This document shows, one piece after another, positions 3,676 through 63,600 of a stretch of DNA of 64,000 bases. The first letter of the stretch is position 1; every line of letters starts with the position of its first letter. A program made the position numbers and the translations under genes. The notes under the pieces are model-generated. The model searched no databases and was not told the DNA's origin. It saw only the letters and a program-made list of their open reading frames with translations. Source of the DNA: Chiloscyllium plagiosum (Eukaryota); assembly GCF_004010195.1 (NCBI RefSeq), contig NC_057733.1, positions 28,355,637 through 28,419,636 on the forward strand. Reading direction: 5' to 3'.

Positions 3676-3785
3676 CCACCCGATGAAGGAGCAGCGCTTC
3701 CAAATAAACGTGTTGGACCATAACCTGGCGTTGTGTGATTTTTAACTTTGTCCACACAGTCCAATAACATTACCTCCACATCATA
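3676..3785 (+). mobile_element. Short PLE-type repeat, family D, with decayed hammerhead core
   Basis: ccgatgaaggagcagcgcttccaaataaac...ataacctggcgttgtgtgatttttaac shared with copies at 24190 and 62955. Confidence 0.6.
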
Positions 3786-4519
3786 AATAATCGCTGGCCA
3801 TTCCCATGCTTTTCATAATAAATAAAATTCATCAGAAAAAAATTCAATGATTCTATTCAACATATTGGTGTATTCCCATTTATTTAAAAAAAAACAATAG
3901 CACTCCCAGCCCGAATTAATGAATACATGGCACATTTAAATTTATCTTCGGCATTAATAACCATTCATCAGAACATGATTGCGGCACAGAATCATCAACC
4001 TGTCCCCTTCACATGCATCTGTCCAGTTCATCACAACTAACATTCAGTAGAACAAGCATCTCCTTTGAAGATCCGTGTATCATAATTCTGTGTTCTGACT
4101 TTTCCAATTTTTTTTAACCAATGGGAAACACACTGTTGCGATCCTGAAAACCTATTTCACTTTGAACTCCATTATCTATTAGAATACAACTACTCCGTTT
4201 TCCGACCTTTCCAAGTTTTTGATTAATTAATGGAAGCACATTGCGTCATATGATGAAAATTGATTTAATATTCTGCTCCTTTGTCCAATAACCCTTTCGT
4301 CAGCAAAGAAAATATGTCAGTTTCTGCAGACTCTTCGCATTAGTGAAGTTTTTTGTGGTTCGTGGAAATAGTACAAGATATGAAGCCGATTTGGTCTGTT
4401 CCGCATATTGAGACTGCTGTTCGATCATGTTTAATACGTTTCTCAATCCCATTCCCCTGCCTTCTCTGCATTGTGCTTACTCCCCTTACTAATTAAAAAA
4501 AAAACTTCCTCGAACGGGA

Positions 4520-7410
4520 GAGGCTTCCATTTCTGTTTAAATTTTAGCGTCAGCAGCAACTCAAAGGGCGGGAGATTGGACCAGGGGCCTACCGGGAGCG
4601 GCGAGTCACTGAGTTGAGCTTTTATATTTGAAGTCAGAGAGCAGAGTTTTCTAGGAAAGAAGAGACTTCTTAATTTTATTTACATGGAGCTATATAAGTC
4701 AGAGTTTTGTCAGCGCGAGACCCTACCATTGTAGGGCCTCACACCCACATTGTAGGGCCTCACACCTCCGAAAACCTTAAAGACTGTGGACACATCAGCT
4801 AATCCACTCTTCTTTTTTTCTTTGTGATAAGGGGACTAGCAGAATGTTCTTCCTGCATGATGCTTGAGGACAGGGACAGCATTAGTGTCCTACCAAGTAC
4901 ATCTGCACGAAGTGCACCCAACTCCCGCTCCTCCAAGAACGTGTTAGAACGCTGGAGCTGGAGCTGGATGAACTACGGGAGACAGTATGTGATAAACAAG
5001 AGTTACAGGGAAGTAGTTACTCCCAGGCAAGCAAAAAGCTGGTGACTCTTCAAAGAGGAAAACTAATCTGTGGAGGGAATCCCTGTGGCCGTTCTCCTGG
5101 AAAACAACAATGCCGTTTTGGATACTTTTGACGTGGATGACTTACCAGGGGCATGCAGTGGGGCTCAGGTCTCTGGCACAGAGCCTGTTCCTGTTGCACA
5201 GAAGGGAAGGAGGGAATGGAGGAGAGTGTTAGGTATTGGGGACTCAATAGTTAGAGGCTCAGATAGAAGGCTTGTTGGTAACGTACAAAACTTACTGATG
5301 GTGTGTTGCCTCCCAGGTGCCAGGGTCCATAATGTCTCTGATCGTATCATTGGGATGCTGAAGAGAGAGGGCGACGAGTCTCAAGTCGTGGTTCATGTAG
5401 ATTCAAACGTCATAGGGAAAAGGGATAGGAATGTAAGGCAGGATGTTGGGGAGCTAGGGTAGAAGCTGAGACCGAGAACAAACAGAGTTATTATCTCTGG
5501 TTTGTTATGCATGCCACGTGATAGCGAGGCAAGGAATAGGGAGAGGTATTTGTGGGCGGCACGGTGGCCCAGTGGTTAGCACTGCTGCCTCACAGCGCCA
5601 GAGACCCGGGTTCAATTCCCGCCTCAGGCGACTGACTGTGTGGAGTTTGCACGTTCTCCCCGTGTCTGCGTGGGTTTCCTCCGGGTGCTCCGGTTTCCTC
5701 CCACAGTCCAAAGATGTGCAGGTTAGGTGAATTGGCCATGCTAAATTGCCCGTAGTGTTAGGTAAGGGGTAAATGTAGGGGTATGGGTGGGTTGCGCTTC
5801 GGCGGGACGGTGTCGACTTGTTGGGCCGAAGGGCCTGTTTCCACACTGTAAGTAATCTAATCTAATATCAGCTGACCACGCGGCTGCAAGAATGGTGAGG
5901 ACAGACGGTTTCAGGTGCTTGGATAATTGGGGCTCATTCTGGGGGAATTGGGACCTGTACAAACAGGACGATCTTTACTTGAACCAGAGAGGTACTGATA
6001 TCCTGTGTGGGAAATTTGTTGGTGCTATTCGAGTGGGTTTAAAATTGCTCAGCAGGAGGATGGGAAACTGTGGTGTAGTTTCCCAGGAGGATGAGAGCAG
6101 GGAGAATAGCGATAGGATTGCAGGGTCACAGGAATGTGCTGGCAGACAGAAACCTGGTTTGAAGTGTGTCTACTTCAACGCTAGAAGTATCCGAAATAAG
6201 GTACGTGAGCTTGCAGCACGAATAGGTACGTGGGACTTCGATGTTGTGACCATTTCGGAGGCATGAATAGAGCAGGGTGAGGAATGGATGCTTCTGGTTC
6301 CAGGATTTAGATGTTTCATTAAGAACAGTCAAGGCGGTAAAAGGGTGGGAGGTTTCGCCTTGTAAGTCAAGGAGTGTATAACAGTGGCTGAGAGAACTTT
6401 TGACGAGGACTCGTCCACTGAGGTAGTGTGGTTTGAGGTAAGAAACAGGACAGGAGCGGTCACACTGCTTGGATTTTTTCATAGGGCTCCACAGAGTTCC
6501 AGGGAGATGGCAGAGGGGATTGGCAAAATTATTCTGGGTGGGAATGAAAGGAACAGGTGGTCATTATGGGGGACTTTAACTTCCCTAACTTTGACTGGAA
6601 ATGTTTTAACTCTTGTACATCGGATAGATCAGTTTTTGTCCAATGTGTAGAGCAGGGCTTCCTTGCACAGTCCGTCCAAGGGCCGACAAGAGGGCAGGCT
6701 GCACTGGATCTGGTGCATGGTCATGAACCAGGCCAGGTGTTTGATTTAGTTGGAGGTGAGCACTTTGGACAGAGTGACCATAATTCAGTTGCGTTTTGTT
6801 TAGCGATGGGAAGGGATAGGAACATACCACAGTTCAAGGGTTATCGATGCGGCAAGGGCAACCATAATGCGATTAGGCAAGAATTAGGATGCAAAGAATG
6901 GGGCAGCAAAATGCAGTGGATGCAGACACTGCAAATGTGAAGCTAGTGTAAGGAACAGATATTGCGTGTCCTTAATAGGTATGTCTCTGTCAGGCTGGGA
7001 GGAAGTGATAAGGTAAAGGAACCGTGGTTTACGACAGAAAATGCATCGCTTGTTAAGCATAACAAGGAGGTTTATGTGTTGATGAGGCAAGATGGTTCAG
7101 ATGATGCGATGAGAGTTACAGCTCAGCTCAGAGCATTTAAAGAGAGAGTTAAGAAGATCACAGAGAGGACTCGAGCAGTCTTCTGCAAATAAAGTAAAGA
7201 AGAACCCAAAAACGTTCTATAGCTTTGTGAGGAATAAAAGGATGACTAGGGTAGGAATAGGACTAATGAAAGACAGAAGTGGGAAGTTGAGTATGGACCT
7301 TGTGGAGATTGGAGAGGTGCTAAGTGAAAGTTTCTCATTGGTTTTCACTCAGGTAAAAGAGAATGTTTTAGAGGACAATAATGATATACGAGATATTAGC
7401 CTAGAAATGT
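4520..7410 (+). mobile_element. 5' part of a CR1 LINE (5' UTR, ORF1 esterase, ORF2 APE endonuclease), decayed and interrupted by a SINE
   Basis: ORF1 motifs CSSC, IGDSIVR, CCLPGARV, VVVHV; ORF2 motifs YFNARSI, VIMGDFNFP, LDLV, SDHN; multiple stops and frameshifts. Confidence 0.9.
5553..5865 (+). mobile_element. HE1-type tRNA-derived V-SINE (young copy)
   Basis: Pol III box A TGGCCCAGTGG (5565-5575), box B GGTTCAATTCC (5609-5619), V-domain core gtggagtttgcacgttctccccgtgtctgcgtgggtttcctcc, CR1-like 3' end, aatct tail; near-identical to 63029-63332. Confidence 0.9.
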
Positions 7411-16410: not shown

Positions 16411-16750
16411 GCGAGTGGAGAGAAGATTTGTAGCTTAGGTTGAGGTTCTGTATGTAGGTTTGCTCACTGAGCTGGAAGGTTAATTTCCAGACGTATCGTC
16501 ACCCTACGAGGTAACATCTTCAGTGGCCCTCAGGCGAAGCACTGCTGATAAGTCCTGCTTTCTATGTGTATGTTTGGGTTTCTACCACTCCTGAGAAAGA
16601 ACAGGAAGTGACATCATCAACCCAAACATATAAATAGAAAGCAGAACTTATCAGCAGTGCTTCGCCTGAGGCCCACAGAAGATGTTACCAAGTAGGGTGA
16701 CGAAACATCTGGAAATTAACCTTCCAGCTTAGCAAGCAAACCTACATCCA
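16411..16750. mobile_element. Fold-back PLE-derived element (family A), hammerhead-like motif in each arm, 14-bp TSD
   Basis: Inverted arms; TSD aaaaagatattttg at 16397-16410 and 16751-16764; similar to the termini of the 44298-45525 element. Confidence 0.85.
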
Positions 16751-17944
16751 AAAAAGATATTTTGTTTTCACATTCAGCAATAAACACCTGAAAGTTAGTT
16801 TAACATTTCCAGGAGTCATAATTACATGCAACCAATGGCAGTCATGGTAAATTTAAGATGCACATTTCAAATAAAAGACAAAGCAATAATAATGCAAGTA
16901 TTCAAGTACTAAATATTTGAAATGGCAGGGAGGAAGAGAAACTTCCAGGTTGCTGACTTTTCAACTGATGTCCACAGTGCTAGACCTATTAAATGTTTCA
17001 GAATGTGTTTTGTATCAGATTTCAAGTAAAAAAAATGAATAGTTGTGTGTTCCAGTTACTCAGCTTGTTGGTAGGAGTAGCCATGCCCTGGATGCCATGT
17101 TTAAGTGAACCAATTCCAATTTTCATATTCTCGGTATAAGAATTAATATCATACTTGAGTAATATGTTGAATCATTTGAGATCTTAATATGAGCAGCAGC
17201 ATTAGAGGCCATGTGTAAAACACTGTGGAAGTAAAAATATGCCTTGCTGCAAGTTGTGATGGACAACTACACTCCACTGAAGAATAGTGCCCATTTATAA
17301 CCAGATATCCATAGATTCACCCATCATGTTACAGTGAAGACTTTCTCCTAGAGCAATGCAGAAGAGGGAAAACTGTTCCATATTATCATTGCTCTCCAGA
17401 AATGGGAGAGACCAAAGAGATGAGACTGATTATAAAAACTCCTTTACAATTTTCGTTTCAATTTAGGCGTATTTCCATAGTGTCTTTTCCTACAAAAATG
17501 GCAAATTAACAAGCTTCAGTTAACTCTCCAAGAACAAAAATTAGCAACTTTCGTTCTATTCCCTTAAAACATTTGGGAATGTTTTAACTAGTTAAAATCA
17601 ACACAGTTAATTGACAAAAAAGCTTGCTATTGAAATGCTCGATCAAGTTCCTGAACACCAAAATAAAATTTTAAAACTGTGGATGATGGAAACCAAAAAA
17701 AATCAAAATTACTGACAAAACTCTACATCTGGCAGCATCTGTGGGAAGAAAGCAGAGTTAACATTTTGAATATGATGTTTGATTCTGATTAAATCAAAGG
17801 TTTAGCCTGAGAAAGTGTGTATTTTTCCTCGAGAACAAATAGCAGTAACTAACATTATTCAGTCAATCCAAAATACATAAAAGAGACAATATTCCTTTCT
17901 ATCATAATGTAGAAATATAGGCTTTGCAAATATTAAACTTTTAC

Positions 17945-18182
17945 CTTCAGTGTCATAAAACACATCAGAACCCAGAATTATATCTATCTGAGGTAGCAGC
18001 ACAAGATCAGGTGATATTTGCCCCCAGGTTAAACCGATGACCGGCACATCTTCAAGGTTATTAATCTGGCAACTGAGGCGGCAGTTATCCAAGCAATTCG
18101 GAATCTCTGCACTGTCGGATAAAATCACATTGGCACCACATTTTGCTGCCACTATGCCAGGTAAGCCCGCACCAGCCCCAAT
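17945..18182 (-). CDS. METTL23: METTL23 coding exon 3 (SAM-binding motif I IGAGAGLPG; DIILGSDVFY)
   Basis: ttttcag acceptor, gtaa donor, 238 nt; seven-beta-strand methyltransferase motifs. Confidence 0.97.
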
Positions 18183-19158
18183 CTGAAAACAAAATTAATT
18201 CCCACATCATTGCAAATTGAAAATATTGTACTTGGAATATAATTTTAAACTATTTTGTGGTTTGCGAATGTGTATTTGCAAATTGAATCACTGTTTTTGG
18301 ATACTTCAATTAAACTAACAAGATGTGTAAATGATGACAACACATACAAGAGCAGTGATGTTTTTGCAACAAAGTACATGAAGGACTAATCTTTATGGAA
18401 TATCAATAAGTTTAAAAACTAAACATGCTTTCCAGTTTAAGAATTTGAATGTAATTCTGTATAAGCATTGGTAATGTTTTAAAGAATATTTCTATACAGT
18501 ATTTGTCAGGTTTGCTACTTTTTGGTGAAAAATTTTCCTTAAGACTTCGTCTTGAGTAGCAAGGGTCACTTTCTTTCAAATTCAATCCTCTTATGGAGCA
18601 AAGATGACATAGAATTGTTTTTTTTTTCCGTTCTTACCCAGAAGGTTTATCTCACAATTAAGCAATCTTCTCATTGAAATTACCTGTTTTTTTTTGTTTT
18701 CAACCTACTGTCCATCATCAGTAAAACATGTGTACAGCCAAATGAAGATTTACAAGTCAAGCCCATTCGGGGCAATACAAACCATAAAACTGTGTGGGGG
18801 GAGGTTAACTCAAAGCAGAGGGAAAATAAAGCACCGTATCCCACAAAGTGTCCACCTCTTTCGAAATGTAGAGGGAACTGATGGACACCACGTCTAAGGC
18901 TCCATCCTCCACCAAATACTCAAAACCAGTGATGGTGGAACTACAGATTCTGGAGCAGTGGCTCTCTGGCCACAGCCACAATTCCAGAAGGCAGGAAGAC
19001 CCAGCTTGAGTTGACCCTGTTCCAAACATTTATCAGGCTCTGGTAAGAGACAGGCAGTGAACTGAAGCAGATTACATGGAATGATCTAATATGCATTCGA
19101 ATTTATCACCTATTTTCTACCTGTGTCATAATTCAAAATCAAGTTAAGTTTAGTTTAC

Positions 19159-19642: not shown

Positions 19643-19855
19643 CCCTATCCCCATTCACCTATTGTACTCTTTGCTACCTTCTCCCCAGCATCCCCACCCC
19701 ACCAATTTATCTCTCCAACCTGCCTCCTTTCCTGATAAGGGCTTTTGTCCGAAACATCGATTTTCCTGCTCCTCGGATGCTGTCTGACCTGCACTTTTCC
19801 AGCACAACTCTAATCTAGACTCTGGTTTCCAGCGTCCGCAGTCCTCACGTTTGCC
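19643..19855 (+). mobile_element. PLE-type short insert, family B, decayed hammerhead, 10-bp TSD
   Basis: TSD cagattttga at 19633-19642 and 19856-19865; ctgataagggcttttgtccgaaacatc core. Confidence 0.75.
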
Positions 19856-22800
19856 CAGATTTTGAGAAATGCAGAGCATTGTTTGGACACAGTGACCTCC
19901 AAAGGTAATTTTTTAGGGACAAGAAATAAATCTGTTGCCACCAGCCAGGTCCAGACGCAAACCCACAAAAGTCCTCATATCTGCCCACACCCGTATGCAC
20001 CAGATGAGATCTGGCTCTAACTGAATAAGTAAAATAGAACCAGGTGATTAGAATATCACTTTCCTGCCCAATTCTGGAGAGAAATTCAAAGAAATGGTGC
20101 AGTAAATTGTGTCAAAGGCTGCAGATAAGTCAAGGGGAATTGTGCATCAGTCACTAATTAGAGCCATTTCAGTGCTGGAAAAAGATCAAGAACTAGAGAT
20201 AACACACAGGATCATGTATTTCAAATGTTGTTTATGGAATCTATTGTGAAAATTGTGCTAACTTAAGAAAGATACTTACTCTTCAAAACAAATGAACTCA
20301 CTTTGTCAACCATGGTTCATTGACTTCCAGAGATGGGAGTATTGACAAAGCCATTCGATTCAAGCTGACTCTAGAAACCAGTGACAACTTGGTACTGATA
20401 GTACAAAGGAGGTGGTGCAATGTCACAGATGCAATATGTCACACAATGATAAAACAAATTCCATCTATTCTGAGGATACAAAACACATTGCTTTGCAAAT
20501 TCACATTATTGAATCCTTCATTGTTTTACTTCATCGAGCCATCTTTCACAAGTAATTTTTACAGTACCTCCATAATAGCAGGATTAATAATTCCAGGATT
20601 CAACAATAGCGTTCAAACTGAAGTGGGTAAAAATCCTGAAAAAAAATTGTGGAAAAGAGCAGAGGAGCGAGACTAAATTCTCACAATGGTTTGTCCAGAT
20701 CCAGTGGGTCAAATCCCTTCTTCTGTGTGGTGTTTAGTGATTTACTCCCTAATTCCAGTTTATTCTATATCTTGTATAATTATATTTTTAAAACATAACA
20801 GCTGTAAAATTAAAATCAGATAAATAAAATGTTGATATTTGATTGGTATCGTATAACCTTTTGGTTTTATGCAACCTCCTAAATTAACAAAATATATTTT
20901 AATAATGAAGAGAATGCTGAATCATATTTAGTAACAGAGTTAAATTTTATTGCAAGGCTGACTGGAACTGAAGGAAATAAAAATGGGATAATACTACCAG
21001 GCATTTGGTTTCCTTGACCCGTTTTGCTGATAGGAAATGTGGGAATTACCTTATGAATTGATCTGTTGAGGAAACATTTTGTTCAGTAATGTAGATAGTA
21101 ATTTCCTGAAATAAGCAGTTAACACAGGATTTATCCTACTTGCCAAAAATTCTCAGTTGCCAGTTTGATGTTACACTTCAAACAAATCAAAAACAGAATA
21201 AACACACTCTGGAATAACATGCTGTACAATTATTTGAAAATGGAAAAGGCTCCTTCAATCATTGGCATACAATTACATGCGAAATCAGCAAACAAAAAAA
21301 CCCCACAAAAATAAGACTTGGTTCCTCCCGTTGTGCCACGGATGCACTGCAGTATGTTACTCAAACCTAAGTGAAGGTCATTTTCAGATCTACTTTATCA
21401 GGTCTTTCTTTACCAATCTCATCTTTTCCAATTCGAGTGACCATTGCACTTCGACTGTGGCAGCGAATATACCCAAGAGGCAAAATACCTGCTCTCCCAC
21501 TCTGAGTCATCTCTGCATCACAGTATCTAGCAGATGTCTTTGACCAGAACTCTAGTGCGCTTAGTTGTTGCTGATGCTGTTTCACTCTTTGATACCCAGG
21601 ATCTCATGCAAACAATACTGGTGAAAGATAGCCAACCAACATGGGCATCTTTGCTGTTCTCTTCCATTTCCTGCTAACATTAATGTAGAATCACAACTTT
21701 AAGGGCATGTAGATGGTGTTGGCTTCCCAGACCACATGAAGCTGCTGGAGATTGGCATTGATGCAAGAATTGGCAATTCAGCAATCTTGACACCATCACT
21801 CCCCATTAGGGCTAAAAACGTCAACTCTCCTGCTCGACTTGCTTCGCTTTTTCCAGCTGCACATTTTATCGACTATGCCATCATCCACCCCCACCTTACG
21901 AGCTCAGGAAACTTATGCAGCCACTCATCCCAATTTCCCCACATTATGTAGTCAATGCTGATATAGGAATCTGGTGCACAACTATTAGGACTAAATCCCA
22001 CTTTCAGCATAGTTGGAGCAACAGCTGTCTTATTGAGATACAATAGAACACTTACATCAAAGTCCCACAACTTGTTGGTTTGAACACTGAATCTGTCTCT
22101 TTCATCACCAAGTCAAAGCCCTGAAGCTTCCCATTTAATGATATTAGTGAGGCAATAAGATATAGAGCAGAAGTAAGCCATTCAGCCTGAGTCAGCTCCG
22201 CCATTCCATCATAGCTGAATGTTTTGCAACCCCATTCTCCTGCCTTCTCCCCATAACCCTGATCCCCTTACTAATCAAGAACCCCTCTCTCTCTGTCGTA
22301 GATACAATGAAAACACTTCCACCACATTACTTAACAAGTTGCTCCCCATCCTTCAAAGAACGCAAGAATTATTAAGGAAGCGATGCAAGTCAGAAACGGG
22401 AAATGTGGATAAGCTGAGAAGCAAAGTCAGACAGTTCTCGCAGATTCTTCAATAACTATTGCAATTTAACAGTAGTCCTGCACATCGGCCATAAAAATCA
22501 ATGTTAAAATAGTTTGAAAGCTCAAATTTAAGAAGAAACAGCAGGCATTTTTATATACTTTTCACATATTCAAGATGTTCCAAAACAGTTCACAGATCTA
22601 TTCAGTGTAATGGCTGTTTTCAAGAGGGTAACATGGTAGCTGCGTTCAAGTATCAAGGTTCCAAGGTGTATATAAAAAAAAACACACGACAACGCAACTT
22701 TCCATCAATTATAAAAAGCAGCCTAGAAGTGTGTGCTATTATAGAACAGGGCTTGAAATTAGACCTGATTTATAGCTAAGTGTAATAACCCAATGCCAAA

Positions 22801-23319: not shown

Positions 23320-24390
23320 AGTCAAATGCTGGAAATCTGAAACAAAAACAGAAAGTTGCTGAAGAAACTCAGCAGACCTGGCAGCATCTACAGAGAGAGA
23401 AAACAACTGTACAATAGAAAAATGGGTCCTTCTGCCCACAATGTTGTGCAGAACATGGCACAAAGTCAGACTAATGCCTGCCATTGGTCCACATCTCATT
23501 CCTGATGAAGGGCTTTTGCCTGAAATGTCAATTTCCATGCTCCTCAGATAACACCTGATCTGCTGTGCTTTTCCAGCACCACTCTAATCTTGGTCCATAT
23601 CCCTCCATAACAAGAGACCAATGTTCCTCCTCTGGTATGACTTCTTCAGAATTCAAGTTCTGTACCCCAAACATCTCCATATCCCTTGTTTAACTCTGCT
23701 TTCTCTCTCTCCAGACACTGCCAGACCAACTGAGCTTAGTCAGAGATAAACAGCAGAGAAACAGACCATTCGGTCCAACTCATCTATGCCAACCAGATAT
23801 TCTAACCTAATTTAGTCCCATTTGCCAGCACTTCGCCCACACCCCTCCAAACCCTTCCTATTCATACACTATTCTAGATGCCTTTTAAATGGTGTAACTG
23901 TATGAGTCTCCATTACTTCCCCTGGCAGTTAATTCCATACACACACCATCCTCTGCGTGAAAAAGTACCCCCTTATGTCCCTTTTAATTTTTATCCCCTC
24001 ACCCTAAACCTATGCCTTCTAGTTCCAGACTCACCTACCCAAGGAAAGGACCTTGTTTATTTATCCTATCCATACACTTCCTGACATTATAAACCTCTAT
24101 AAGGTCACCCCTCAGCTTCAGATGCTCCAGGGAAAACAGCCCGTCTATTCAGCCTCTCCCTATAGCTCAAATCCTCCAACCCTGGCAACGTTAAAAATCA
24201 CAACACCAGGTTTCAAAGCGCTGCACCCTCCAAAAGCTAGCGCTTCCAATTAAACCTGTTGGACTATAACCTGGCGTTGTGTGATTTTTAACTTTGCACG
24301 TCCCAGTCGAACACAGGCGTCCCCGACAACATCCTTGTAAATCTTTCCTGAATCCTATCAAGTTTCTCCGGCAACTTTCTGTTTTAGCTT
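23320..24390. mobile_element. Nested repeat stack: family C palindrome interrupted by CR1 pieces that carry family B and D inserts
   Basis: Family C arms at ~23320-23408 and ~23688-23735/24361-24387; family B 23496-23589; CR1 3' end 23738-24362 (-); family D 24190-24325. Confidence 0.7.
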
Positions 24391-24575: not shown

Positions 24576-24864
24576 GGCATCACATCGGCTGGGCCTCACC
24601 GCCTGAGAGAGGGCGTCTCCGCATGACGTCACGAAAGTGGCAGTCGCCTGGACCAATCGGGTGTCCACCACCCCTCAAGGGGCGGGGTTGAAAGGGACCA
24701 GTCATCCGTCGTGGGCGGGACTTCCTCCCCACGGTTTGATTGACAGGCCCGGTGCGGGGGGACGTGGGTGAAGATTCTGGAAGGGTTTCCCTTCCTTCCT
24801 TCCAGCCGGCCGTGACAGTACTGGGGAAGGTTGGCGAAAGCGTGGCGTCGCTCGTTTTTAAGAA
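24576..24864. promoter_or_regulatory. Bidirectional CpG-island promoter of METTL23 and JMJD6
   Basis: 289 bp between divergent ATGs; CRE TGACGTCA 24624-24631, CCAAT 24653-24657, GC boxes 24679-24688 and 24711-24720, TGATTGACAG 24737-24746; CpG-rich ~24400-25460. Confidence 0.85.
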
Positions 24865-24993
24865 ATGAATCACAAAGCGAAGAAGAGGATAAAAGAAGCT
24901 AAGCGCAGTGCTCGCCCGGAGCTGAGGGATTCCTACGACTGGACTAAGCACAACTACTACGAAACTTTCTCTTTATCATTGGACACTGTCAAG
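24865..24993 (+). CDS. JMJD6: JMJD6 coding exon 1, [20 protein letters not shown]...LDTVK
   Basis: N-terminus nearly identical to human JMJD6; AAG|GTAAGG donor; 129 nt. Confidence 0.98.
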
Positions 24994-36223: not shown

Positions 36224-36421
<198 letters not shown>

Positions 36422-42934: not shown

Positions 42935-43069
42935 AGGGTCTGAAGAAGGGTCACCAGACACAAAACATTAAATTTGATTTCTCTGCACAAATACTGCCAG
43001 ATCTGCTGAGCTTTTCCAGCAACTGTTATTTTTGCTGATTTACAGCATCTGCCGTTCTCTCTGTTTTGC
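42935..43069 (+). mobile_element. PLE-type short insert, family C, hammerhead-like start, ~13-bp imperfect TSD
   Basis: agggtCTGAAGAagggtc...; flanked by ttt(a/g)agtatagga, inside a CR1 fragment. Confidence 0.65.
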
Positions 43070-43419
43070 TTTGAGTATAGGAGTTTGAAAGTCATGTTCA
43101 AATGTATAGGACATTGATGAGGCCTCTGCTGGAATACTGTGTCCAGTTATGGTCTCCCAGTTATAGGAAAGATTAAGCTGGTGAAGGTTCAGAAGAAATT
43201 TACCAGGATGTTGCCAGGCATGGAAAGTTTAAGTTGGAACAGACTGGATAAGTTGTAACCTTTTTCCACTGTAGTGTCGGAGGTTGAGGCGCAACATGAT
43301 ATGTTTATAAAAGAAGATAGTTAATGTTTGTTTTTTTTTCCCTAGAGTGGTGGATTTCAAGACGAGGCGGCTTTTTTTTGGAAGTGAGAGGAGAGAGATT
43401 TACATAAGACATGACTGGG

Positions 43420-43612
43420 AGAAAGCGAGGACTGCAGATGCTGGAGATCAGAGCTTAAAAATGTGTTGCTGGAACAGCGCAGCAGGTCAGGCAACATCAA
43501 AGGAACAGGAGAATTGACGTTTCGGGCATAAGCCCTTCTTCAGGGCTTATGCCCGAAACGTTGATTCTCCTGTTCCTTTGATGCTGCCTGACCTCTGCGC
43601 TTTTCCAATAAC
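43420..43612. mobile_element. Fold-back PLE-type element, family B, intact hammerhead core on - strand, 11-bp TSD
   Basis: TSD acatgactggg at 43409-43419 and 43613-43623; - strand CTGAAGAAGGGCTTATGCCCGAAACGTC at 43543-43516. Confidence 0.85.
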
Positions 43613-45089
43613 ACATGACTGGGCAGGCATTTTTTTTACATAAGGTGGTTCCCATGTGGTGGAGGGAAGTGATGGATGTGGGCACAATTACAACATTTAA
43701 AAGCTATTTGGATAGATTGATGAACAGGAAAGGTTTGGGAGGGATATGAGCAAGGAGCTGGTAGATGAGATTAGTTTAGTTTGGGATCATGGTTGGCATA
43801 GACTGGTTGGACCAAAGGGTCTGTTTCTGTGCTGTATGACTGACTCTATGACCAGAAGAGCTGAATATAGTTTAAATTGGGCAAGATTGCAGGAGGTCAA
43901 AGATCATTGTACATGATTTACAAAAAGCTAGCATTCAGGTTTGGCTGGTTATAAGGAAAGCAAGTAGACTGTTGGCCTTTTTACTCATTTTTTGTTCCAA
44001 AGTGGGGTCGTGGTCTTCCTAAAACAATGCAAGACACTAGCCAGATAACACCTATAATATTTTAAAGTTTTTGGCCCCTTTATCTAAGGTATAGATAGAT
44101 GAAGTCCAGAGATGTTCACTTGATTGGTTTCATATAGAGGGACTGTCAAAGGAGAGGCTGAGGCTGATATTCATTGCAGTTTAGAAGAATGAGTGATGAT
44201 CTTATTGCAACTTAGAGTTTTCTCTGGGGGTTTGACAAGGTAGGTACAAGGAGGTTTTTTTTTCCTCTTGTGGGAGAGTCTAGGATCAGAGGGCTTAGGG
44301 TGTAGGTTTGCTCACTGAGCTGTAGGTTTGATATTCAGACGTTTCATTACCTTGCTAGGTAACATCAGTGGCGACCTCCAAGTGAAGCGAAGCTGTTGTC
44401 TCCTGCTTTCTATTTATATCTTTTTTCCTGGATGGGGTTCCTGGGGTTTGTGGTGATGTCATTTCCTGTTTGTTTTCTAAGGGGTTGATAGATGGCATCT
44501 AGATCTATGTGCTTGTTTATAGCGTTGTGGTTGGAGTGCTAGGCCTCTAGGAATTCTCTGGCATGTCTTTGCTTAGCCTGTCCCAGGATAGATGTGTTGT
44601 CCCAGTCGAAATGGTGGGTTTTTTTTCATCCGTGTGTAGGGCTATGAGGGAGAGGGGGTCGTGTCTTTTTGTGGGTAGCTGGTGTTTGTGCATCCTGGTG
44701 GCTAACTTTCTTCCTGTTTGTCCTACGTAGTGTTTGTGGCAGTCCTTGCATGGAATTTTATAGATGACGTTGGTTTTGTCCATGGGTTGTACTGGGTCTT
44801 TTAAGTTTGTTAGTTTACTAGTAAATTAGTTTGTTAGTAAACTAACAAACTTAAAAGATCCAGTACAACCCATGGACAAAACCAACGTCATCTATAAAAT
44901 TCCATGCAAGGACTGCCACAAGCACTATATAGGACAAACAGGAAGAAAGTTAGCCACCAGGATATATGAACACCAGCTAGTCACAAAAAGACACGACCCC
45001 CTCTCTCTCATAGCCCTACACAGGGATGAAAAAAACCCACCATTTTTGACTGGGACAACAGATGTATCCTGGGACAGGCTAAGCAAAGA

Positions 45090-45210
45090 AGGGCTTACGC
45101 CCGAAATGTCGATTTCCCCTGTTCCCTGGATGCTGCCTGACCTGCTGCGCTTTTCCAGCAACACGTTTTCAGCTCTGATCTCCAGCATCTGCAGACTTCA
45201 CTTTCTCCTC
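45090..45210 (+). mobile_element. Family B insert nested in the PLE right arm, 16-bp TSD
   Basis: TSD acaggctaagcaaaga at 45074-45089 and 45211-45226. Confidence 0.9.
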
Positions 45211-45418
45211 ACAGGCTAAGCAAAGACATGCCAGATAATTCCTAGAGGCCTGGCACTCCAACCACAACGCTATAAGCAAGCACATAGATCTAGATGCCAT
45301 CTATCACCCCCTCAGAAAACAAACAGGAAATGACATCACCACAAACCCAGGAACCCCATCCAGGAGAAAGATATAAATAGAAAGCAGGAGACAACAGCTT
45401 CGCTTCACTTGGAGGTCG

Positions 45419-45458
45419 CCACTGATGATGTTACCTAGCCACGTAATGAAACGTCTGG
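45419..45458 (+). ncRNA. Minimal type I hammerhead ribozyme motif in the PLE terminal repeat
   Basis: cca-CTGATGA(45422-45428)-t-gttac/gtaat stem II-GAAACGTC(45448-45455)-tgg; stem I cca/tgg; palindromic ACGT in place of helix III. Confidence 0.7.
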
Positions 45459-46329
45459 ATATCAAACCTACAGCTCAGTGAGCAAACCTACACCCTAAAT
45501 CTCAACCTGAGCTACAAACCTTGCTATCAGAGGGCTTATTTGTAGGATAAGCAGTAAAGGTAAAGTTGCCATGGTCTTACTGGACCATAGAGCAGCTCTC
45601 TAGTGATGGTTTAACATGACAGTCACCATTTCTATGACAATTGGAGGGGTTGAGGCAGTGAGTCCTTTGTGGTAACCTCAGCCAGTGTCCGAATTAAACT
45701 CATGCTGTTGATATCCTTCTGTAGTATTGCAAACCAGCCAACAGCTAAGCCACCATTGTTTAAGTGAGAGAGGTGTGAGGAATGTTTTTTTTTAGGCTAG
45801 TGAATCTGTAGAATTCTTCACTGGAGAGGGCTGTTAATACTGGTTATATTTGAGCCTGACTGGTTTTTAATTAAAGTTGAATTAATCCATTCTGAATGTA
45901 TAGCGAATTTCTTGTTTGTCTTGTCAGCAATGTGGTGGATTGGAAGGAACTTAAACAAGTTGTACGTTCTTTACCTTCATGAAATTACTCATGAAGGTAA
46001 TTTCATGAGTATTACCTTCAGACACTATTGGAATATAATGTTGTAATATGCCATACGTTTAGGATGCTTGTTAAATTTTATTTGACCAAACTTTGGTCAT
46101 CTGTCCAAATGTTTTTGTGGCTTGTTGAAGTTTATTTGATCTTTTTATCATAGAATCCCTACAGTGTGGAAGTAGGCCATTTGCCCGTCGTCTCCATGCT
46201 GACCCTCTGAAGAGCATCCCACCCAGATCCAGCCCCTTACCGTATCCCCATAACCCCAAATTTTACCATGGCTAATCCACCTAACCTGCACACCTTTGCA
46301 CTGTGGAAGGAAACTCATGTAAACATTTG

Positions 46330-50900: not shown

Positions 50901-52079
50901 GGCACACTCATTTAATGGCAAATATATACATCCTAAGATGTGTCTAGAACTGCGTGCTCGATTCTAGGTAAGAATCACTTCACAGAAATTAATAAGAGGC
51001 TTAAAATCAGATATTAGTTATTATTAAAGTAACACCATTAATAAAGTGTATCAACAAGCAAACTTTAAGGAAAACTCATCAATCAATATTATGTTCTTTG
51101 GGTAATAATCTTTTGTCCTTAAGTGTGGTTCAGGCAGGGCTTTGTATAATTGGAGTACAACATCAGTGACAAACAAAATCAAACTGCTGGAAAATCTGAG
51201 CAAGTCTGGTAGTATCTATGGATTGAAAACAGTTAAAGTTTGGAGTCCAATGATTGGATCTAAGAACAGTCAGTTCAGAGGATGATAGTTTGGAATGGCT
51301 CAGGAGACAAATTAAGGTGTCAAAATGTCACATCTACAAGCTGAGTGCAGGTAAGAGGTCCAGGTGGAGGGATAATTTGGAGTTGGTTTAAAGGGTCTGT
51401 GAGATAGGCAGTGGACTCTTGTCCATAGAAATAATGTAAAGATGACAGAAGTGGTGTTCAGGGTCATTTCATAGCTGAAACTCATTGAGGTCAGGATCGA
51501 AAGGAATAAAAAGTCCCTTGCCAAGTACAGAATGTTCAGTGAATCAGGATTTAGTAAAACCTTGACAAGAGGCAAGGTTAGAAGAAGGGAGGGAAGAGGA
51601 GAGTTCCAGAGGCGTATAGATATCTTGGAGTTGTAATTTGCAATGCCTGAAAGGAAGAGAAAAAGCTGCTTGTTCAAGTATCAAACTAATTGAAGAATGA
51701 AGTGGATCTGGGATGGGCAGGAGAGAGCTTGAGTGTGTGCATATGCTGACAGACAGCACGGAGTGTAGATGAGGCAAAAACCGCTTTCTGAAGAATTTTG
51801 TACTACATGGAGATACCTGAGATTCTGGGTAGACTCAAAACATGAAGGATGAAACTTCATTTGAAATCCATGTGGAATGAGTGAGTTGAGTCAGTCACAG
51901 GAACAAGTAGTAGCTATGGAAGTGAGTTTTAACAAATACCTTGTCAAAGACAAGGAGCAAAAATGAAAATAATAGTGCACAAAAAGTAAGAATGAAACAA
52001 ATCCTGTCAGAGGAGCAGAACATCTTCAAGGTGGACATGCATGGAAGAGATGTGGCATTGAATTAAACACAAAATGATA

Positions 52080-52280
52080 GTGGATGCTGTCGTTCTGAAA
52101 TAAGCAAAGACACCAACTTCTGGACTAACTGAGCAGGTCTGGCAGTGTCTGTGGAGAGAAAACTGAGTTATTGTTCTGAAGAAAGTCAGTGGACTCAACG
52201 TTAATTCTTTCTTTCCAGACCTGCTTAGTTTCTCCAAGTTCTGATTTTGTTTGTTTCAATTCTCCAGTATCCACAGTTCT
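52080..52280. mobile_element. Decayed fold-back PLE-type element, family C
   Basis: Inverted arms (gagcaggtctgg / ccagacctgctt) around CTGAAGAaagtc...gactc...aacgtta. Confidence 0.55.
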
Positions 52281-53589
52281 CTCTTAATTTTGATTTCTAT
52301 GCCCTTGCATTTCAAATTTCAGGTTGATTCCTGTGTTATAGTTGGCTTGGAACAGTTATAGAGTGAAGCACAAGTCTGACCAGTTAGTTAGTGAAATGGC
52401 TTAGATGTCTTTTTTTTCCATTCCTTAACATGCATGTAGTCCTATGTTGTAGCTTCAGTACCTTGGAACCTCACTTTTAAGGAAACTTTGTGCTATTCCT
52501 GTCAATTACACGAATTACTCAACCAAATTTGGCCTCCTGGCTTGACGTAAGTGATTGAGGGAAGAATATGGCAGGCCATGAGATCATTGACTGTTTTAGG
52601 ATATAATGATGCTGCCCACAGCATATCATGGATGCCCTCTGAGGTAGGCCATCTATTCTGCACTTATCCCACTTAGCTCAGTGTACTACCGGCTAGTATT
52701 ACAGGTATAATGGAGACCCAATCTGAGCACAAGGATGGGTCGTCTTCTCCGCAGGACTGCGTAGAGTTCATTTTCTTAACTGATCATATCATGTATCAAT
52801 GCATCAGCACCAGGTGGATTGCGAAAGCCGAGGTCAATTATATTTCCTTCGTTTTGGTGCTGCAGACTATAGATCTGGATAAATAGATGAGTCCTTCAGC
52901 ATTCATTCTGTTTCAATGAAGAGTACAGGAGAGGATACCAGCTGTGATACCACACCTACCCTAATAATGAGGTGTCAACTTAATGAAGGTACAACACAGG
53001 ACTACTTGCATGATTATAGCATAAAAGCAAATGTAAATAGCGGTAGACAATTAAACAAATTGATATGATCCACAAATATCCTGACCCTCACTAATGGTGG
53101 ATAGTCCAGCTGAGTGCAGATAACAAGACAGAAGTATTTGCAGTAATCTTGAGTTGGAAGTGCCAAGTGAATGGTCCATCTGTTCTGGAGAGGTCATACT
53201 GGGCTGAGCATTAACTCTGTTTCTCCCTCCACAGATGCGACCAGATCTGCTGAATTTCTGTTGCAATGCCTGTTTGTATTTCATAGAACATAGAAGAATA
53301 CAGTGCAGTACAGGCCCTTCGGTCCTCGATGTTGCGCCGATCTAAGCCCACCTAACCTACACTAGCCCACTATCCTCCATATGCCTATCCAATGCCTGCT
53401 TAAATGCCCATAATGAGGGAGAGTCCACCACTGCTACTGGCAGGGCATTCCATGAACTCACGACTCGCTGAGTAAAGAACCTACCCCTAACATCTGTCCT
53501 ATACCTACCCCCCCCCTTAATTTAAAGCTATGCCCCCTTGTAATAGCTGATTCCTAGCATCCACATTATTTTGCTTTTATTTGGATGAT

Positions 53590-55817: not shown

Positions 55818-55970
55818 GAAGGAAATGACGATCTGTTTTAAAATCCGATTCATCTTTACATGCCATCTGTGATTTAGACCAGCAGCGTTATCCGTCGACA
55901 GAGCTACTTAAACGCAGTGACTAGACGAAATTAAGTCAGTTCAGGGCTCTGGTATTTGAAGAGAGAGAAA

Positions 55971-56384
55971 ATGGACCTAGCGGTGGATGTTTATGTGGCT
56001 GTCCCGCTGCTCTTCACTGTGCTGGCTGTTATTATCGCTTCTTTATATCTGAGATTCAGACCGTCCGATCCTAGTGTTAAAGAACAGGATGCGAGTTCTA
56101 AAGTTGACGGGAGTAAAGCCGACGAGGAGCCAAAGAGGAAAGATTCCGAGGAGGTGAAGAAGCCCGAAGATGTGAAAGAAGAGCAAGCGGAGAAGAGAGA
56201 TGAGGAGCCAGAGAAAGCTAAAGGCAAGCTGCCAGTGGAGGACATCGGAGCCGGAGAGGGAAATCTCCAGAATCAAGAGCCAACTAAAAACTCTGAGAAG
56301 GAACCCGCAGTTGCCGAGGAGAAAAGCCCCCCGACTAACGAAGCGAAGCAAGAGCCCAGTAACCCCGAGGAGAAGCTTAAAAAG
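55971..56384 (+). CDS. MXRA7: Probable MXRA7 coding exon 1 (N-terminal TM helix, then E/K/P-rich low-complexity region)
   Basis: MDLAVDVYVAVPLLFTVLAVIIASLYLRFR followed by an acidic linker; AAG|GTAAAA donor; same orientation and position downstream of JMJD6 as in other vertebrates; conserved C-terminal exons not seen in the window. Confidence 0.8.
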
Positions 56385-56815
56385 GTAAAATGAAGTGGGG
56401 GGAGGGGGACGGAATCTGGCGAAGAATTGACTTTTTTTTTCTTTTGTTGTTCAGTGGTCTTTTGGCTGAAGGGCTTTTTTCCCCTCTGTTACGCACGGAA
56501 TATTGACTTTCCTGATGTGTGTAACTCTGCAAGGTGACGTGGACGAGACATGCAGATGTGGCCAGGCTTTGGAGCCGAGTGGATTTTAACCTCCAGCTGT
56601 TTTAAGGGTGTCAGTTTTAGTGGGGTTTTAAGGGGAGGTAGAGAAGGCGGGTCCTTCCCCGGGGTTACGCTACTGCTGCATTAGAGAAACGTCTGGTTTC
56701 AGAGCCAATACTCGATCAATAGCGCTACAGTGCCGCACTAACACATCTCCAAAACAGAACAATGAAAACTCTGAAGATGGCCAACACTCAGTCGGCGAGT
56801 ACTGTGTCTCGATCA

Positions 56816-56947
56816 TTCTCTTGGCGAAGAGTCAAGCTGGACTCGAAACGTTAACTATTCCCCTTTCCACAGATGCTGCCAGATCTACTGAGTTTCTCTA
56901 GCACTTTGTTTCAGATTTCCAGCATCTGCAGTATTTTGCTTTTATTC
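56816..56947 (+). mobile_element. PLE-type short insert, family C, hammerhead-like, 10-bp TSD
   Basis: TSD gtctcgatca at 56806-56815 and 56948-56957; ttggcga-a-gagtc/gactc-GAAACGTTA. Confidence 0.75.
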
Positions 56948-59900
56948 GTCTCGATCACTGATCGATAGCGCTTTATTTCTTTATCTGTGGAATAACTGAT
57001 ACGGAATGGGTTTTTTTTTAAGCTGCACACGATTAGTTTTGTTTGCGGTGAGACGTGAATTTCAGGTGCCGGTGCCCACATTCTCTACATCAGACGGAGA
57101 CAATAGTGAGCTCGTAGTCTGCCGCTCCCTGTGCCAGTCCTGGGTATGGCAAATGGCTGGAAATGGACCAAGTGTCCATATGTGACACCTAAGCATAATC
57201 TTTGGGCACTGAGCTAGTCGACTTGTGTTCCTTTCCCTGTAGCTTAGGGCACTTGGTCCTAATTGCTTGTTTTTGTTTTCTCTCTGATCACCTCACCACA
57301 CAGCCCGCAGAACTGCCCACTTGTTTGTATAACGTCGTTGTGTTTACAACTAAGTTCTATCTGATCTGACGAGCAAATTAGAACCTTCTGCCTCCTTTTT
57401 AAAATTCTAATTGTTCAGTTAGAAAGTTAGCGTTTTACAACAACCTCCTGAAGCGATTGATCTTTCCTGGGCAAGGGGATTCCAGACATGGCAGCTGCTG
57501 CTCAGCTTGTGTTATAGCTGTACTTCCAGTTTGGAGACCGTTCATAACAGGGCGCGTCTTATCAAAGTTTCCTTTGTGCAGTTTTTAAACCGTTTTAATC
57601 ACGTTGCATCTTATAAAAGCAGTATTGTATGAAAAAGTGGCATCCCACTCAGCGTTTTGTCCTCTGCATAGTTTTTTTGGAATCAACTGAGTTGGGAATG
57701 ATTGATCGGTGTGGTTATGTTTGAGTATGTCAGTCTTTTTTTTTAATTTGACCTGTGTATTTGAGGGGGAGGAGTGAAACTGGGATGCAGATTCCTTTTG
57801 GAATGATGGCAAATGCAAATTACTGCAGGTTACTGTTTGGAAATTGAAATGCACAGATCTCCAAAATAAAATTGCATGTAAGATAAGGATCAAACCCAAA
57901 TCTTAGATGTGTGGTACCAAAGTTGTTTGAAGTGAAACTTTGCCTTGCCTGGTGGTGCAGAGAATCAAACAACATCTCCTTGATGTTCGATGGTATTACT
58001 ATTGTTGAATCTGACAATCGAGACAGGGAGGTAAACCATTGAACTGGACTAGCCATATGAATACTGTGGTTATAATTGCAGGTCATAGCTTCATGAATTC
58101 TGTGACCAGTAACTTGCCTCTAATATAGCTGTATACAAGGCACACGTCAGTGAGGGATGTATTTATTGCTTGGCAACATGAGTGCAACTCCAAAAATAAA
58201 TTTGTAACTTCAGGATTCGAGGGTTATTTGATTAGCACCCCATCTACTACCTTCAATATGCATTCCTTTCCTGCAGGTGGGCAGCAGTGTCCTGGGCAAG
58301 ATGTACTGGAGATCTAAATCCTTCAACAGTACCTTCCAACACACATCTCTCCTAACTGGAAGGACAAGGGTTCTGATGCATAGTAACAATATTTGCATAT
58401 TCCCCTCAGTGTTTATCCCTCCTCACTTGGAGTTATGTCGCTATTCCTTCTCTCACTGGCTTAAAATCTTAACTCCCATGGACCACAGCATGTCCCTACA
58501 CCTAGAATTGAAGATGACTGCTCCCCAACACCTTTCTTAGAATGATTTTAAGGATGAGTCACAAATAGCCTAATGAGTGATTAATGATATGTGAACATAA
58601 ATAAGGGAAAGGCCAAGCATTTGATGCCCAGGTCTATCATGAGTTATTTCACTTAGAGCTATCTAATAATATGCCATCAAATTTGCAGAACAAAATGTTT
58701 GGTGTTTCCATAACTGAATCATATATATTTTGACTATTTGCTCAGGCTTGGATGTTGAGCATATCCTTAATCTTTTAGGGCAGTTGTTTTGATTGATGGA
58801 ATCCTGAGTAGTTTGCTGAACTGGGGTGTACTTAGCCAGCTTTTTTTGAGTATGGTATTGTTGATCATTGAAGCATAATGACTGGAAACTAGAAATAAGC
58901 CCCAAATATTCTACTCCAGACTTGCGAGGTATCCTCTTTATCTGTTGCCCTTTTCTACGACTTGTGAACAAATTATACTTTAATTTGCTACGGTCAGATA
59001 TTTTTAAATTCTCTGCTTTAAAAATTTTGGACTGTTTGCCTTTGTTTACCAAGGCCTGAAAGACTCCAGATTCCTCTGCATTGACAACAGCCAAACTTCA
59101 ATTGAAATAAAAGGTCAAGATAGCAAGAAGTAACATTTTTAAAAAGTACAAACACTTGAATATAAGATTATTGGTCATAATTTCATATCTCCCTTTTTGT
59201 TTTGTTGGAGTGGAGTCATATGTTGTAATGCCTGAAATATGATCAGATTGTGTACGTAAGCTCCACACAGTAGTATTCTTTCCTGAGGTTTCACACAAGA
59301 TGCAATTCACACACTAACTTCTGCCAACAGTAAGTTTATTAAAACTTACACACAAGTTAGGTGACCCCCTTTGACCCTGCTTGCAGGCATGCAAAGTTGA
59401 GTCAAGAGATCCCAAACAAAGAAAACACATGTCTTTATACAGGTCAGTTGGTAATGCATACAGATACTCTGGCCACTCCCCACAGTAATGTGCCACTGAA
59501 GACATCCCCAGCCACTTTGTCACAGTCACATGTTACTCCAGGTACGATGGTAGGATGCGGTCATCCCCAGATAATGTAAATACCGTAATCCTGGGGAATT
59601 GTTACACAGATGATTTCCTGACTGTTTTGGGGGAAATCAATGTAGGTGTGATATATCCTAGCTTTGGGGAATGATTGAAAGCTTTTCTGATAGTTTAATT
59701 TGATAGCAGGGGAATAGTAGCAAATTACGGTCGAAAGAGTGGGAGTCATCCACATTCCTGCATAAATGTTGTCCCCACCCACTTCCAGAATGTTTGGTCA
59801 GTACAGTTTAACCCTTCAATATTACTAATGCCCAGAGCTATTCTTTGACATAACCAGATACTCTAATCATATTGTAATGTTCAAAATTAACTTAATCTGA

Positions 59901-61849: not shown

Positions 61850-62595
61850 AGTATAGGGAATGGTAAGGTCCTAGGGAATGTTACTGAACAAAGTCCTTGG
61901 AGTGCAGGTTCATAGCTCCTTGAAAGTGGAGTCACAGGTAGATAGGATAGTGAAGGCAGCATTTGGTATGCTTTCCTTTATTGGTCAGAGTATTGACTAC
62001 TGGAGTTGGGAGGTCAGGTTGCAGCTGTACAAGACATTGGTGAGGCCACTGTTGGAATACTGCATGCAGTTCTGGTCTCCTTCCTATCGGAAAGATGTTG
62101 TGAAACGTGAAAGGGTTCAGAAACTATTTGCAAGGGTATTGCCAGGGTTGGAGGATCTGAGCTATAGGGAGATGCTGAACAGGCTGGGGCTGTTTTCCCT
62201 GGAGCATTGGAGGCTGAGGGGTGACCTTATAGAGGCTTACAAAATTGAGGGGCATGGATAGGGTAAATAGGCCAAGTCTTTCTTTTTCCCTGGGGTCGGG
62301 GAGTCCAGAACTAGAGGGCATAGGTTTAGGGTGAGAGGGGAAAGATATAAAAGAGACCTAAGGGGCAACGTTTTCATGCAGAGGGTGGTATGCATATGGA
62401 ATGAGCTGCCAGGGGATGTGGTGGAGGCTGGTACAATTGCAACATTTGGATGGGTATATGAATAGGAAGGGTTTGGAAGAATATGGGCCGGGTGCTGGCA
62501 GGTGGGACTAGATTGGGTTGGGATATCTGGTTGGCATGGACAGGTTGGACCGAAGGGTCTATTTCCATGCTGTACATCTCTATGACTGACTGACT
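61850..62595 (+). mobile_element. CR1/HER1-like LINE 3' part
   Basis: LGVQVHSSLKVESQVDRIVK...EYCMQFWSPSYRKD; gact tail. Confidence 0.92.
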
Positions 62596-62954
62596 GAGTG
62601 CCTGTGCATTGTATGGTCCTAACAGTTGATGTTCAGAAACTGCCAAAGTCAATGGAAGTAGTTGTCCAAACACTTGGATTGTGTTTAGATCATGCAAGTC
62701 TTTAATGCATAGAAATGTGTAGGTCAATTGTTGTGCAGATGTTTGTTATATAGACTTGCTGGCGTTCATTCCAGACAGCTGTCAGTCTGTTGAAGGTTGT
62801 ATTTGGCAAGTCTTGCATATTTGATCAATAAACCAGTGTCCTGCAGAAATATTTTTCTGCAATGCTGTGAGGGTCTTTTAATTGAAATAGAGTTCAAAAT
62901 GGAGCTTCCTCTGGAGCAGGCTAGCTCTTTACTTCAGTGTCAATCCAGGACCAT

Positions 62955-63600
62955 GATTTGGAGTTGCTGGTGTTGCATTGGGCTGGACAACATTTAAAAT
63001 AACACAACACCAGGTTATAGTCCAACAGTGGGGCGGCACAGTGGTTAGCACTGCTGCCTCACATTGCCAGAGACCTGGGTTCAATTCCCGCCTCAGGCGA
63101 CTGACTGTGTGGAGTTTGCACGTTCTCCCTGTGTCTGCGTGGGTTTCCTCCGGGTGCTCCAGTTTCCTCCCACAGTCCAAAGATGTGCAGGTCAGGTGAA
63201 TTGGCCATGCTAAATTGCCCGCAGTGTTAGGTAAGGGGTAAATGTAGGGGTATAGGTGGGTTGCGCTTCGGCGGGTGTGTGGACTTGTTGGGCCAAAGGG
63301 CCTGTTTCCACACTGTAAGTAATCTAATCTAAGTTTATTTGGAAGCACTAGCTCTTGACGTGTGGCCTCCATCAGGTGGTTGCAGAACCTGACCATACAA
63401 TGCAGAATTTATAGCATAAGGGTAAGTGTCATTCAGTTGTAATGAGATATTAAACTTTAGTTTTGGTTGTTGAACATATTGCTACAACTCATGACACTAA
63501 CGCCTTCGCTACAAATTCTGCATTGTATGGTCACGTTCTGCAACCACCTGATAAAGAGGCCACTCCTCAAAAGCTGGTGCTTCCACTTAAACTGGTGGGT
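62955..63600. mobile_element. Fold-back PLE-type element, family D, interrupted by an HE1 SINE
   Basis: Inverted arms atcaggtggttgcagaac...catacaatgcagaattt / aaattctgcattgtatg...gttctgcaaccacctgat with decayed hammerhead-like cores. Confidence 0.7.
63029..63332 (+). mobile_element. HE1-type tRNA-derived V-SINE (young copy)
   Basis: Box A/B, V-domain, CR1-like 3' end, aatct tail; near-identical to 5553-5865. Confidence 0.9.

Follow-up and report, generated by a model that had tools for sequence, protein, structure and literature searches.

A 64,000-nucleotide stretch of the genome of the shark Chiloscyllium plagiosum (contig NC_057733.1, positions 28,355,637 to 28,419,636; hereafter, the window) contains many short inserts of four repeat families, A to D, that carry intact or decayed hammerhead ribozyme motifs. 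Our sequence analyses indicate that the inserts, most of them decayed, derive from the termini of protein-coding Penelope-like elements (PLEs) and that the short copies of families B, C, and D, which we call stubs, are likely run-off complementary DNAs (cDNAs) of the capped 5′ leader of an uncleaved RNA; we put the probability of this reading at roughly 0.75. A first-pass annotation of the window had listed 15 of the inserts and described those of families B to D as noncoding PLE termini or nonautonomous partners of PLEs.

Results

We trained profile hidden Markov models (HMMs) of the four families on genomic copies outside the window and ran them on it. The models gave 32 matches (30 arms), twice the number in the first-pass annotation, and all 15 coordinates listed there fell within families A to D, as it had proposed. 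Frequencies across the genome were taken from a systematic sample of 87 regularly placed 10-kb stretches of chromosome-scale contigs (847,627 bases, ~848 kb), and extrapolations were scaled to the assembly size of 3.56 Gb.

Families B to D had been left without a connection to PLE coding sequence. Elsewhere in the genome this does not hold: the search for copies joined to PLE open reading frames (ORFs) that the annotation had suggested found all three joined to Neptune-like GIY-YIG endonuclease sequence. An intact B core lay at most 520 nt downstream of such an endonuclease in 23 of 30 loci, the other seven having core mutations, deletions, gaps, or duplications; in 21 of 24 loci family D followed a second Neptune-like endonuclease, from which a CA-rich spacer separates it, and family C followed a decayed one in 2 of 95 arms. 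Family A was found downstream of a Poseidon-like GIY-YIG endonuclease fragment in 19 of 20 loci. One B copy contained an 893-codon open frame matching both RVT_1 (E = 6e-8) and GIY-YIG (E = 4e-4, just under the Pfam cutoff). A single ORF with reverse transcriptase (RT) and GIY-YIG domains was thus found in B, while A, C, and D are known from fragments of the GIY-YIG region alone; two apparent "open frames" in the search tables, with 2964 and 763 codons, were runs of N and were discarded. The closest named relatives of the element protein come from carpet sharks.

Family A we take to be Poseidon-like, from the resemblance of its fragments to Poseidon endonucleases. Families B to D are probably Neptune-like: the Neptune-type cysteine linker C-x4-C-x2-C lies between RT and endonuclease in B and, in decayed form, in D, and C was placed by its similarity to the B protein. 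A zinc-finger-like cysteine linker distinguishes Neptune from Poseidon (PMC8557442). The components of an endonuclease-positive (EN+) PLE insertion unit were all found, namely a pseudo–long terminal repeat (pLTR) with a hammerhead, a tail of 30 to 40 bp, an inverted arm, and a target site duplication (TSD), and all four families are termini of protein-coding PLEs.

The B module is both the 3′ end and the leader of the RNA, because its tail runs on into the ORF N terminus in two loci (L175 and L355); a third (L356) has the same N terminus plus upstream bases. This N terminus matches full-length homologs (profile E = 8e-14; E = 8e-8 and 8e-10 to residues 1 to 73 of P0012). Between the tail end and the likely start codon lie 37 nt, and B stubs end before that codon, in agreement with their description as noncoding PLE termini. 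Within the leader at L175:2335-2660, an upstream open frame of ~42 codons begins past the hammerhead and overlaps, in a different frame, the likely main start codon.

The alternative description, as nonautonomous partners, fared less well. Using stem-loop II as a single marker in families B and D, we compared short copies with long ones, defined as reaching at least 100 nt upstream, and found all 6 common B variants and all 3 common D variants in both; there is therefore no sign of separate nonautonomous lineages in B or D. One could still take the short B, C, and D copies for hammerhead mini-elements resembling short interspersed elements (SINEs) or retrozymes, with master copies of their own and mobilized in trans by PLE proteins. 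Stubs greatly outnumber long copies and have a sharp 5′ end in common, very few C arms are joined to an ORF, and animal retrozymes derive from pLTRs (bioRxiv 10.64898/2026.07.22.740005); the Drosophila Penelope has an internal promoter (PMC2377424), and a stub could therefore remain transcribable. We consider such mini-elements improbable, given the variants shared with long copies and, as described below, the lack of tandem arrays in the window, the hairpin centers formed anew each time, and the extra G found across subfamilies and families.

Positions of 5′ ends were counted relative to core base C3 (–1 being one base upstream). Of 148 B arms in the systematic sample, 59 started at –12 to –1, 31 extended further upstream, and 58 started later; of 59 D arms, the corresponding numbers were 21, 18, and 20. 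Starts 4 to 8 bases before the core were common in three of the four families, the modal ends being A(–4) in B and A(–8) in D. Of the first 30 matches to young B, taken in genome order, 25 could be scored, and 16 of these started within 6 bases, again with the mode at A(–4). The reads and contigs of four runs had the same edge at A(–4) (L175:2597), where depth dropped several-fold and loose ends gathered, the copies being embedded in other sequence. Ends at the ribozyme cut site were not in excess (5 of 148 B arms at +26 to +29, a per-base rate like that of the neighboring positions), and cleavage products were rejected as templates on this ground. In 20 of 24 long D copies, TATAAA lies 30 to 32 nt upstream of A(–8). 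The modal start bases fall within the words TCATTC (B), TCAGTT (some C), and TCCACA (D), which are initiator-like.

Many of these starts are preceded by a nontemplated G. Counts were made by hand on copies in which the base preceding the modal start is not that of the template. For D starts at –8, we took the first 100 of 1,480 listed matches and dropped 16 that extended further upstream and differed by a point change or deletion; 73 of the remaining 84 had the extra G. The control set, D starts at –7 (first 100 of 887 listed matches, 19 dropped), had it in 19 of 81, and the difference was significant (Fisher p = 3e-17; p = 7e-12 after removing 25 G that might come from a hairpin arm). For B starts at –4, the extra G was present in 49 of the 99 copies scored among the first 100 of 1,282 listed matches, and in the collected B loci it occurred in 8 of 11 starts at –4 versus 1 of 37 at –3. 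At full-length L1 and SVA insertions, an untemplated G has been ascribed to copying of the cap by the L1 machinery (PMC3287187). Starting 4 to 8 bases before the motif and often with an extra G, the stubs are likely copies of a capped RNA start, and we infer that those of B and D stop where the capped RNA begins. One locus within a D element (L355; G000 C3, near 124.99 Mb) consists of a B module, 73 codons of ORF start, and a second module starting with an extra G; this partial tandem looks like a template jump at a capped end.

The pileup of ends might instead reflect ordinary 5′ truncation of 3′ pLTR copies, with the RT stalling at the folded hammerhead. An RT can add untemplated bases at any stop, and many B arms do end within the motif. 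PLE copies are also generally 5′ truncated (PMC8557442, PMC4209133). Stalling nevertheless seems an improbable cause: the boundary lies upstream of the entire motif, the G is specific to –8 and not –7, the pileup is missing from family A despite its longer stem II, monomers fold no better than shuffled sequences, and the TATA spacing in D points to the same base.

Each family has two 3′ ends, 30 to 40 nt apart, and 88 of 263 sampled insertions were head-to-head hairpins. A long end was combined with a short end in 68 of the 73 scorable hairpins, the others being long/long (2) or short/short (3), while the 139 solo arms comprised 73 long and 66 short ends. Hairpin centers differed between copies (9 of 9 distinct, in loci not chosen by a hairpin query), and the replication of a whole hairpin as a master was rejected on this ground. 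The arms of one hairpin shared their subfamily haplotype in 13 of 14 cases (~0.4 expected), and both arms therefore come from one RNA or one source locus. Same-strand neighbor pairs numbered 12 among 351 arms, in 6 loci; head-to-tail hammerhead repeats, as in the arrays of non-LTR retrozymes, were not found in the window, and that identity was rejected.

We favor, if not strongly, an origin of the hairpins by priming on both target strands. A single cDNA folding back and copying itself, with the endonuclease cutting the intermediate at the short end and no second priming, would be the alternative for the hairpins alone. Self-priming has been proposed (PMC3846280) and the tail attributed to endonuclease resolution (PMC8557442), and such folding back would agree with the like haplotypes of the arms and with the micropalindromes often present at the centers. 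It remains the more doubtful of the two, as short ends also terminate solo copies, several hairpins have a G-start on both arms with a spacer between them, and in vitro the protein of the Anolis element initiates at two sites and extends both strands (PMC11167929). Among 100 listed young-B starts, with many of the loci on G000 C1 and C2, one hairpin junction recurred 13 times and another 4 times, which suggests that the RNA 5′ end and the tail arm are joined preferentially at certain microhomologies.

Requiring both core boxes, CTGANGA and GAAA, to be kept (the strict motif), we found 3 motifs in the window against a mean of 0.02 (maximum 1) in 50 shuffles and 68 in the systematic sample against 0 to 1 in 5 shuffles. 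The latter extrapolates to ~2.9 × 10^5 core-intact motifs in the genome, 1.1 × 10^5 with a stem I of at least 3 bp, and the total of arms to ~1.5 million; exact 33- to 35-base matches of single young subfamilies numbered 15,425 (B) and 7,186 (D). Both boxes were intact in 11 of 17 A, 63 of 84 B, 8 of 23 C, and 17 of 33 D cores located in the sample, the core not being located in a further 3, 28, 19, and 13 arms, respectively.

The first-pass annotation had given the inserts one common hammerhead architecture, with a stem II that differs among families while its pairing is kept. The architecture is borne out at the level of the family and not of the copy: only 3 of the 15 listed inserts keep both boxes (23502+, 43543–, and 45422+), and among them only 45422 also retains a 3-bp stem I. 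The inserts at 24190, 27633, and 45090 start within or past the first core box, and the other nonintact ones have core mutations. The proposed minimal type I motif was recovered, with CUGANGA and GAAA, an extra base after A9, the pair G10.1-C11.1, and a palindromic 15.2-16.2, in families that are joined to PLE coding sequence. The statement on stem II was likewise upheld, and compensatory changes were seen within families as well: counted regardless of phylogeny, stem II pair 2 of family C is A-U in 10 copies and G-C in 9, and stem I pair 3 of family A is G-C in 7, C-G in 4, and U-A in 4. Stem I pairs 1 and 2 vary between families with pairing retained. The length of stem I is 3 to 4 bp except in the commonest B subfamily, which has 2 bp plus U.U; pair 3 is U.U in 45 of 84 B copies.

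Folding of monomers was discarded as support, being no better than that of shuffles (z –1.1 to +0.6). The Rfam scan that the annotation had called for gave 12 matches in the window at E ≤ 5, none of them to a hammerhead family. Rfam models of plant and animal microRNAs (miRNAs) matched the PLE hairpins at 44732-44921 and 43492-43596 below their gathering scores; we rejected a miRNA identity and regard the matches as hairpin artifacts of PLE inserts, which could be misannotated as miRNA genes or enter small-RNA pathways.

Within the window, the inserts sit inside and between host genes, including those of a lysine methyltransferase and a JmjC protein, and many of them are head-to-head hairpins flanked by TSDs of 9 to 16 bp (Table 1). 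Families B and C are related and have their tail in common, C being the older. Nesting gives some relative ages: a B stub was inserted into an A element, and a SINE-like repeat, with a second copy at 5563-5806, into a D hairpin. The three host genes resemble, in the order of the table, METTL23, JMJD6, and MXRA7.

Table 1. PLE-derived inserts and host exons, in window coordinates
Feature	Position	Strand or arms	Details
Family D PLE terminus, decayed	3507-3779	+	Upstream TATA region kept, core broken; extends upstream of the first-pass start at 3676
Family A (Poseidon-like) head-to-head hairpin	16411-16753	both arms	13-bp TSD; one core mismatch per arm
Family C arm, not in first-pass list	17673-17771	–	
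Family B terminus	19643-19856	+	~100 nt of upstream pLTR, long tail, 10-bp TSD; core mutated to CTGATAA
Family B leader stub	23496-23590	+	Short end, both core boxes intact (motif 23502+), 11-bp TSD
Family D stub	24190-24324	+	Short inverted tail piece on 5′ side; first core box absent
Family B hairpin	25612-25827	short-end arm –, long-tail arm +	16-bp TSD; GAAA box broken
Family B stub	27633-27751	–	Starts past first core box
Family A hairpin, decayed	29745-30203	both arms	9-bp TSD
Family C stub	42935-43072	+	Starts at core, 9-bp TSD; GAAA box broken
Family B hairpin	43420-43614	long-tail arm –, short arm +	Core intact at 43543 (long-tail arm); 11-bp TSD
Family A hairpin	44291-45523	both arms	Poseidon-like GIY-YIG fragment in each arm; intact hammerhead motif 45422 (+); 13-bp TSD
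Family B stub nested in A element	45090-45209	+	15-bp TSD; first core box absent
Family C hairpin, decayed	52067-52279	both arms	
Family C stub	56816-56948	+	Long tail, 9-bp TSD; first core box broken
Family D hairpin	62955-63600	both arms	Left arm split by SINE-like repeat, ~63028-63333; core mutated
Other arms not in first-pass list	23323-23402, 23690-23739, 35343-35401, 35881-35979, 41424-41507, 51171-51250, 53187-53284	–, +, –, +, –, –, +	
Methyltransf_16 lysine methyltransferase exons	17859-18194	–	Host
JmjC protein exons	24862-33380	+	Host
Membrane protein exons	55935-56393	+	Host

One further segment was seen outside the window. It is 3.28 kb long, occurs at 99.3 to 99.7% identity at four loci (L239:3269-6551, L240, L241, and L242; G000 C33 twice, C32, and C19), with a similar copy at L072 (C4), and contains LINE (long interspersed element) scraps, other DNA, and a decayed family D PLE, ending in a LINE-like tail of TATGTTC repeats. 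It is possibly a young composite nonautonomous retroposon.

Discussion

On the capped-leader reading, a Pol II core promoter in the pLTR (represented in D by a TATA box at –30 to –32 together with an initiator-like start) would start the RNA at hammerhead stem I. The RT-endonuclease would nick the target and begin copying at internal tail sites ~90 and ~125 nt downstream, and the cDNA would run off the RNA 5′ end after 90 to 130 nt, the cap being copied as an extra base. Hairpins would arise when both target strands are primed, one arm from each start site. The template may be the full mRNA or a short transcript from the 3′ pLTR, and ribozyme cleavage would be unnecessary for making stubs. Lacking the upstream promoter region, the stubs are probably dead on arrival.

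Several observations weigh against this account. Family A has a TATA box and no pileup (1 of 17 in the systematic sample and, among all collected loci, 2 of 26 near the core), for which the account has no explanation. Family B has a TWTATC motif at –31 to –33 and not a TATA box, and the G precedes only about half of its starts. With 58 of the 148 B arms starting inside or after the core and 31 extending upstream, the 5′ boundary is a mode and not a rule, and the start of family C is censored because the C profile stops at –3. An intact pLTR-ORF-pLTR copy was not seen among the loci examined, and the link of family C to coding sequence consists of two decayed loci. One raw single-cell RNA run covers the stretch on both strands without a pileup of starts, 92 to 94% of its reads running into unrelated sequence, and is uninformative on the elements' own transcription. 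As to the hairpins, the sharing of haplotypes between arms fits self-copying as well as it fits twin priming.

The elements are not a new class but very abundant new members of a known one, and their value is in the mechanistic footprint. Minimal hammerheads, solo motifs, and dimer cleavage have been published for PLEs (PMC4209133, PMC6765202), as have the inverted arms, tail, TATA box, and initiator of pLTRs (PMC3846280, PMC8557442). Minimal hammerheads of metazoan pLTRs have a type I core and occur mostly as solo motifs of truncated PLEs, in several families per genome (Cervera and de la Pena 2014, PMC4209133). The shark motifs are like them in the extra base between 9 and 10.1, the pair G10.1-C11.1, and the palindromic 15.2-16.2 that replaces helix III. 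The same work reports ~4,000 motifs in coelacanth and ~9,000 in Xenopus versus the ~2.9 × 10^5 extrapolated here, counts obtained with differing descriptors; its available text names no shark. With EN+ PLE units (Arkhipova et al. 2013, PMC3846280; Craig et al. 2021, PMC8557442), the shark units share the pLTR, the inverted 5′-truncated arm, the optional 30- to 40-bp tail, the TSD, and the TATA box with an initiator-like motif, but most of them consist of the leader module alone. Their one-long/one-short rule and cap-like G point to capped sense templates, whereas PMC3846280 favored self-priming on an antisense template.

For PAc, the Poseidon element of Anolis carolinensis, internal RT initiation at two sites, extension of both strands, and the use of an uncleaved RNA template have been demonstrated in vitro (Frangieh et al. 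2024, PMC11167929). The two systems are alike in the two adjacent internal RT start sites that set the tail. In PAc, however, stem II contains the beginning of the ORF and the tail is part of the coding sequence, whereas the likely start codon of shark B lies past the tail, and in the shark few stubs come from the Poseidon-like family A and many from the Neptune-like families. Non-LTR retrozymes (Cervera and de la Pena 2020, PMC7229834; Li et al. 2026, bioRxiv 10.64898/2026.07.22.740005) are similarly short, noncoding, hammerhead bearing, and related to pLTRs, but they are head-to-tail tandem repeats with circular expression, whereas the shark inserts are dispersed, single or head to head, and flanked by TSDs. 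In the literature searched, which left most subscription journals and Repbase outside, we found no publication on leader stubs or a cap-derived G in PLEs. The 2026 preprint includes one cartilaginous fish, and its supplements may bear on the question of novelty.

More tentatively, the observations could be joined into a fuller model. The capped mRNA of Neptune elements might start at the first hammerhead bases, and the ribozyme might act as a self-decapping switch that removes the cap together with 32 to 37 nt; a dimeric RT-endonuclease would initiate at two internal sites of the uncleaved, capped RNA and copy it onto both strands of the target (twin priming), with about a million "strong-stop" stubs left behind. 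We regard this as a speculative model that is less likely than not to hold.

If true, the stubs would be a fossil record of the PLE mechanism and among the largest ribozyme-motif loads in any genome. The integration of PLEs, the origin of the inverted arms with their optional tail, and the role of the hammerhead are posed as open questions in the papers cited, and the shark stubs would provide a very large in vivo record bearing a base-precise RNA start, a cap-like G, and the one-long/one-short rule. This footprint predicts the transcript start, the template (a sense RNA that is capped and uncleaved), and a function of the ribozyme in decapping, and the young, near-intact B ORFs would be suited to testing these predictions.

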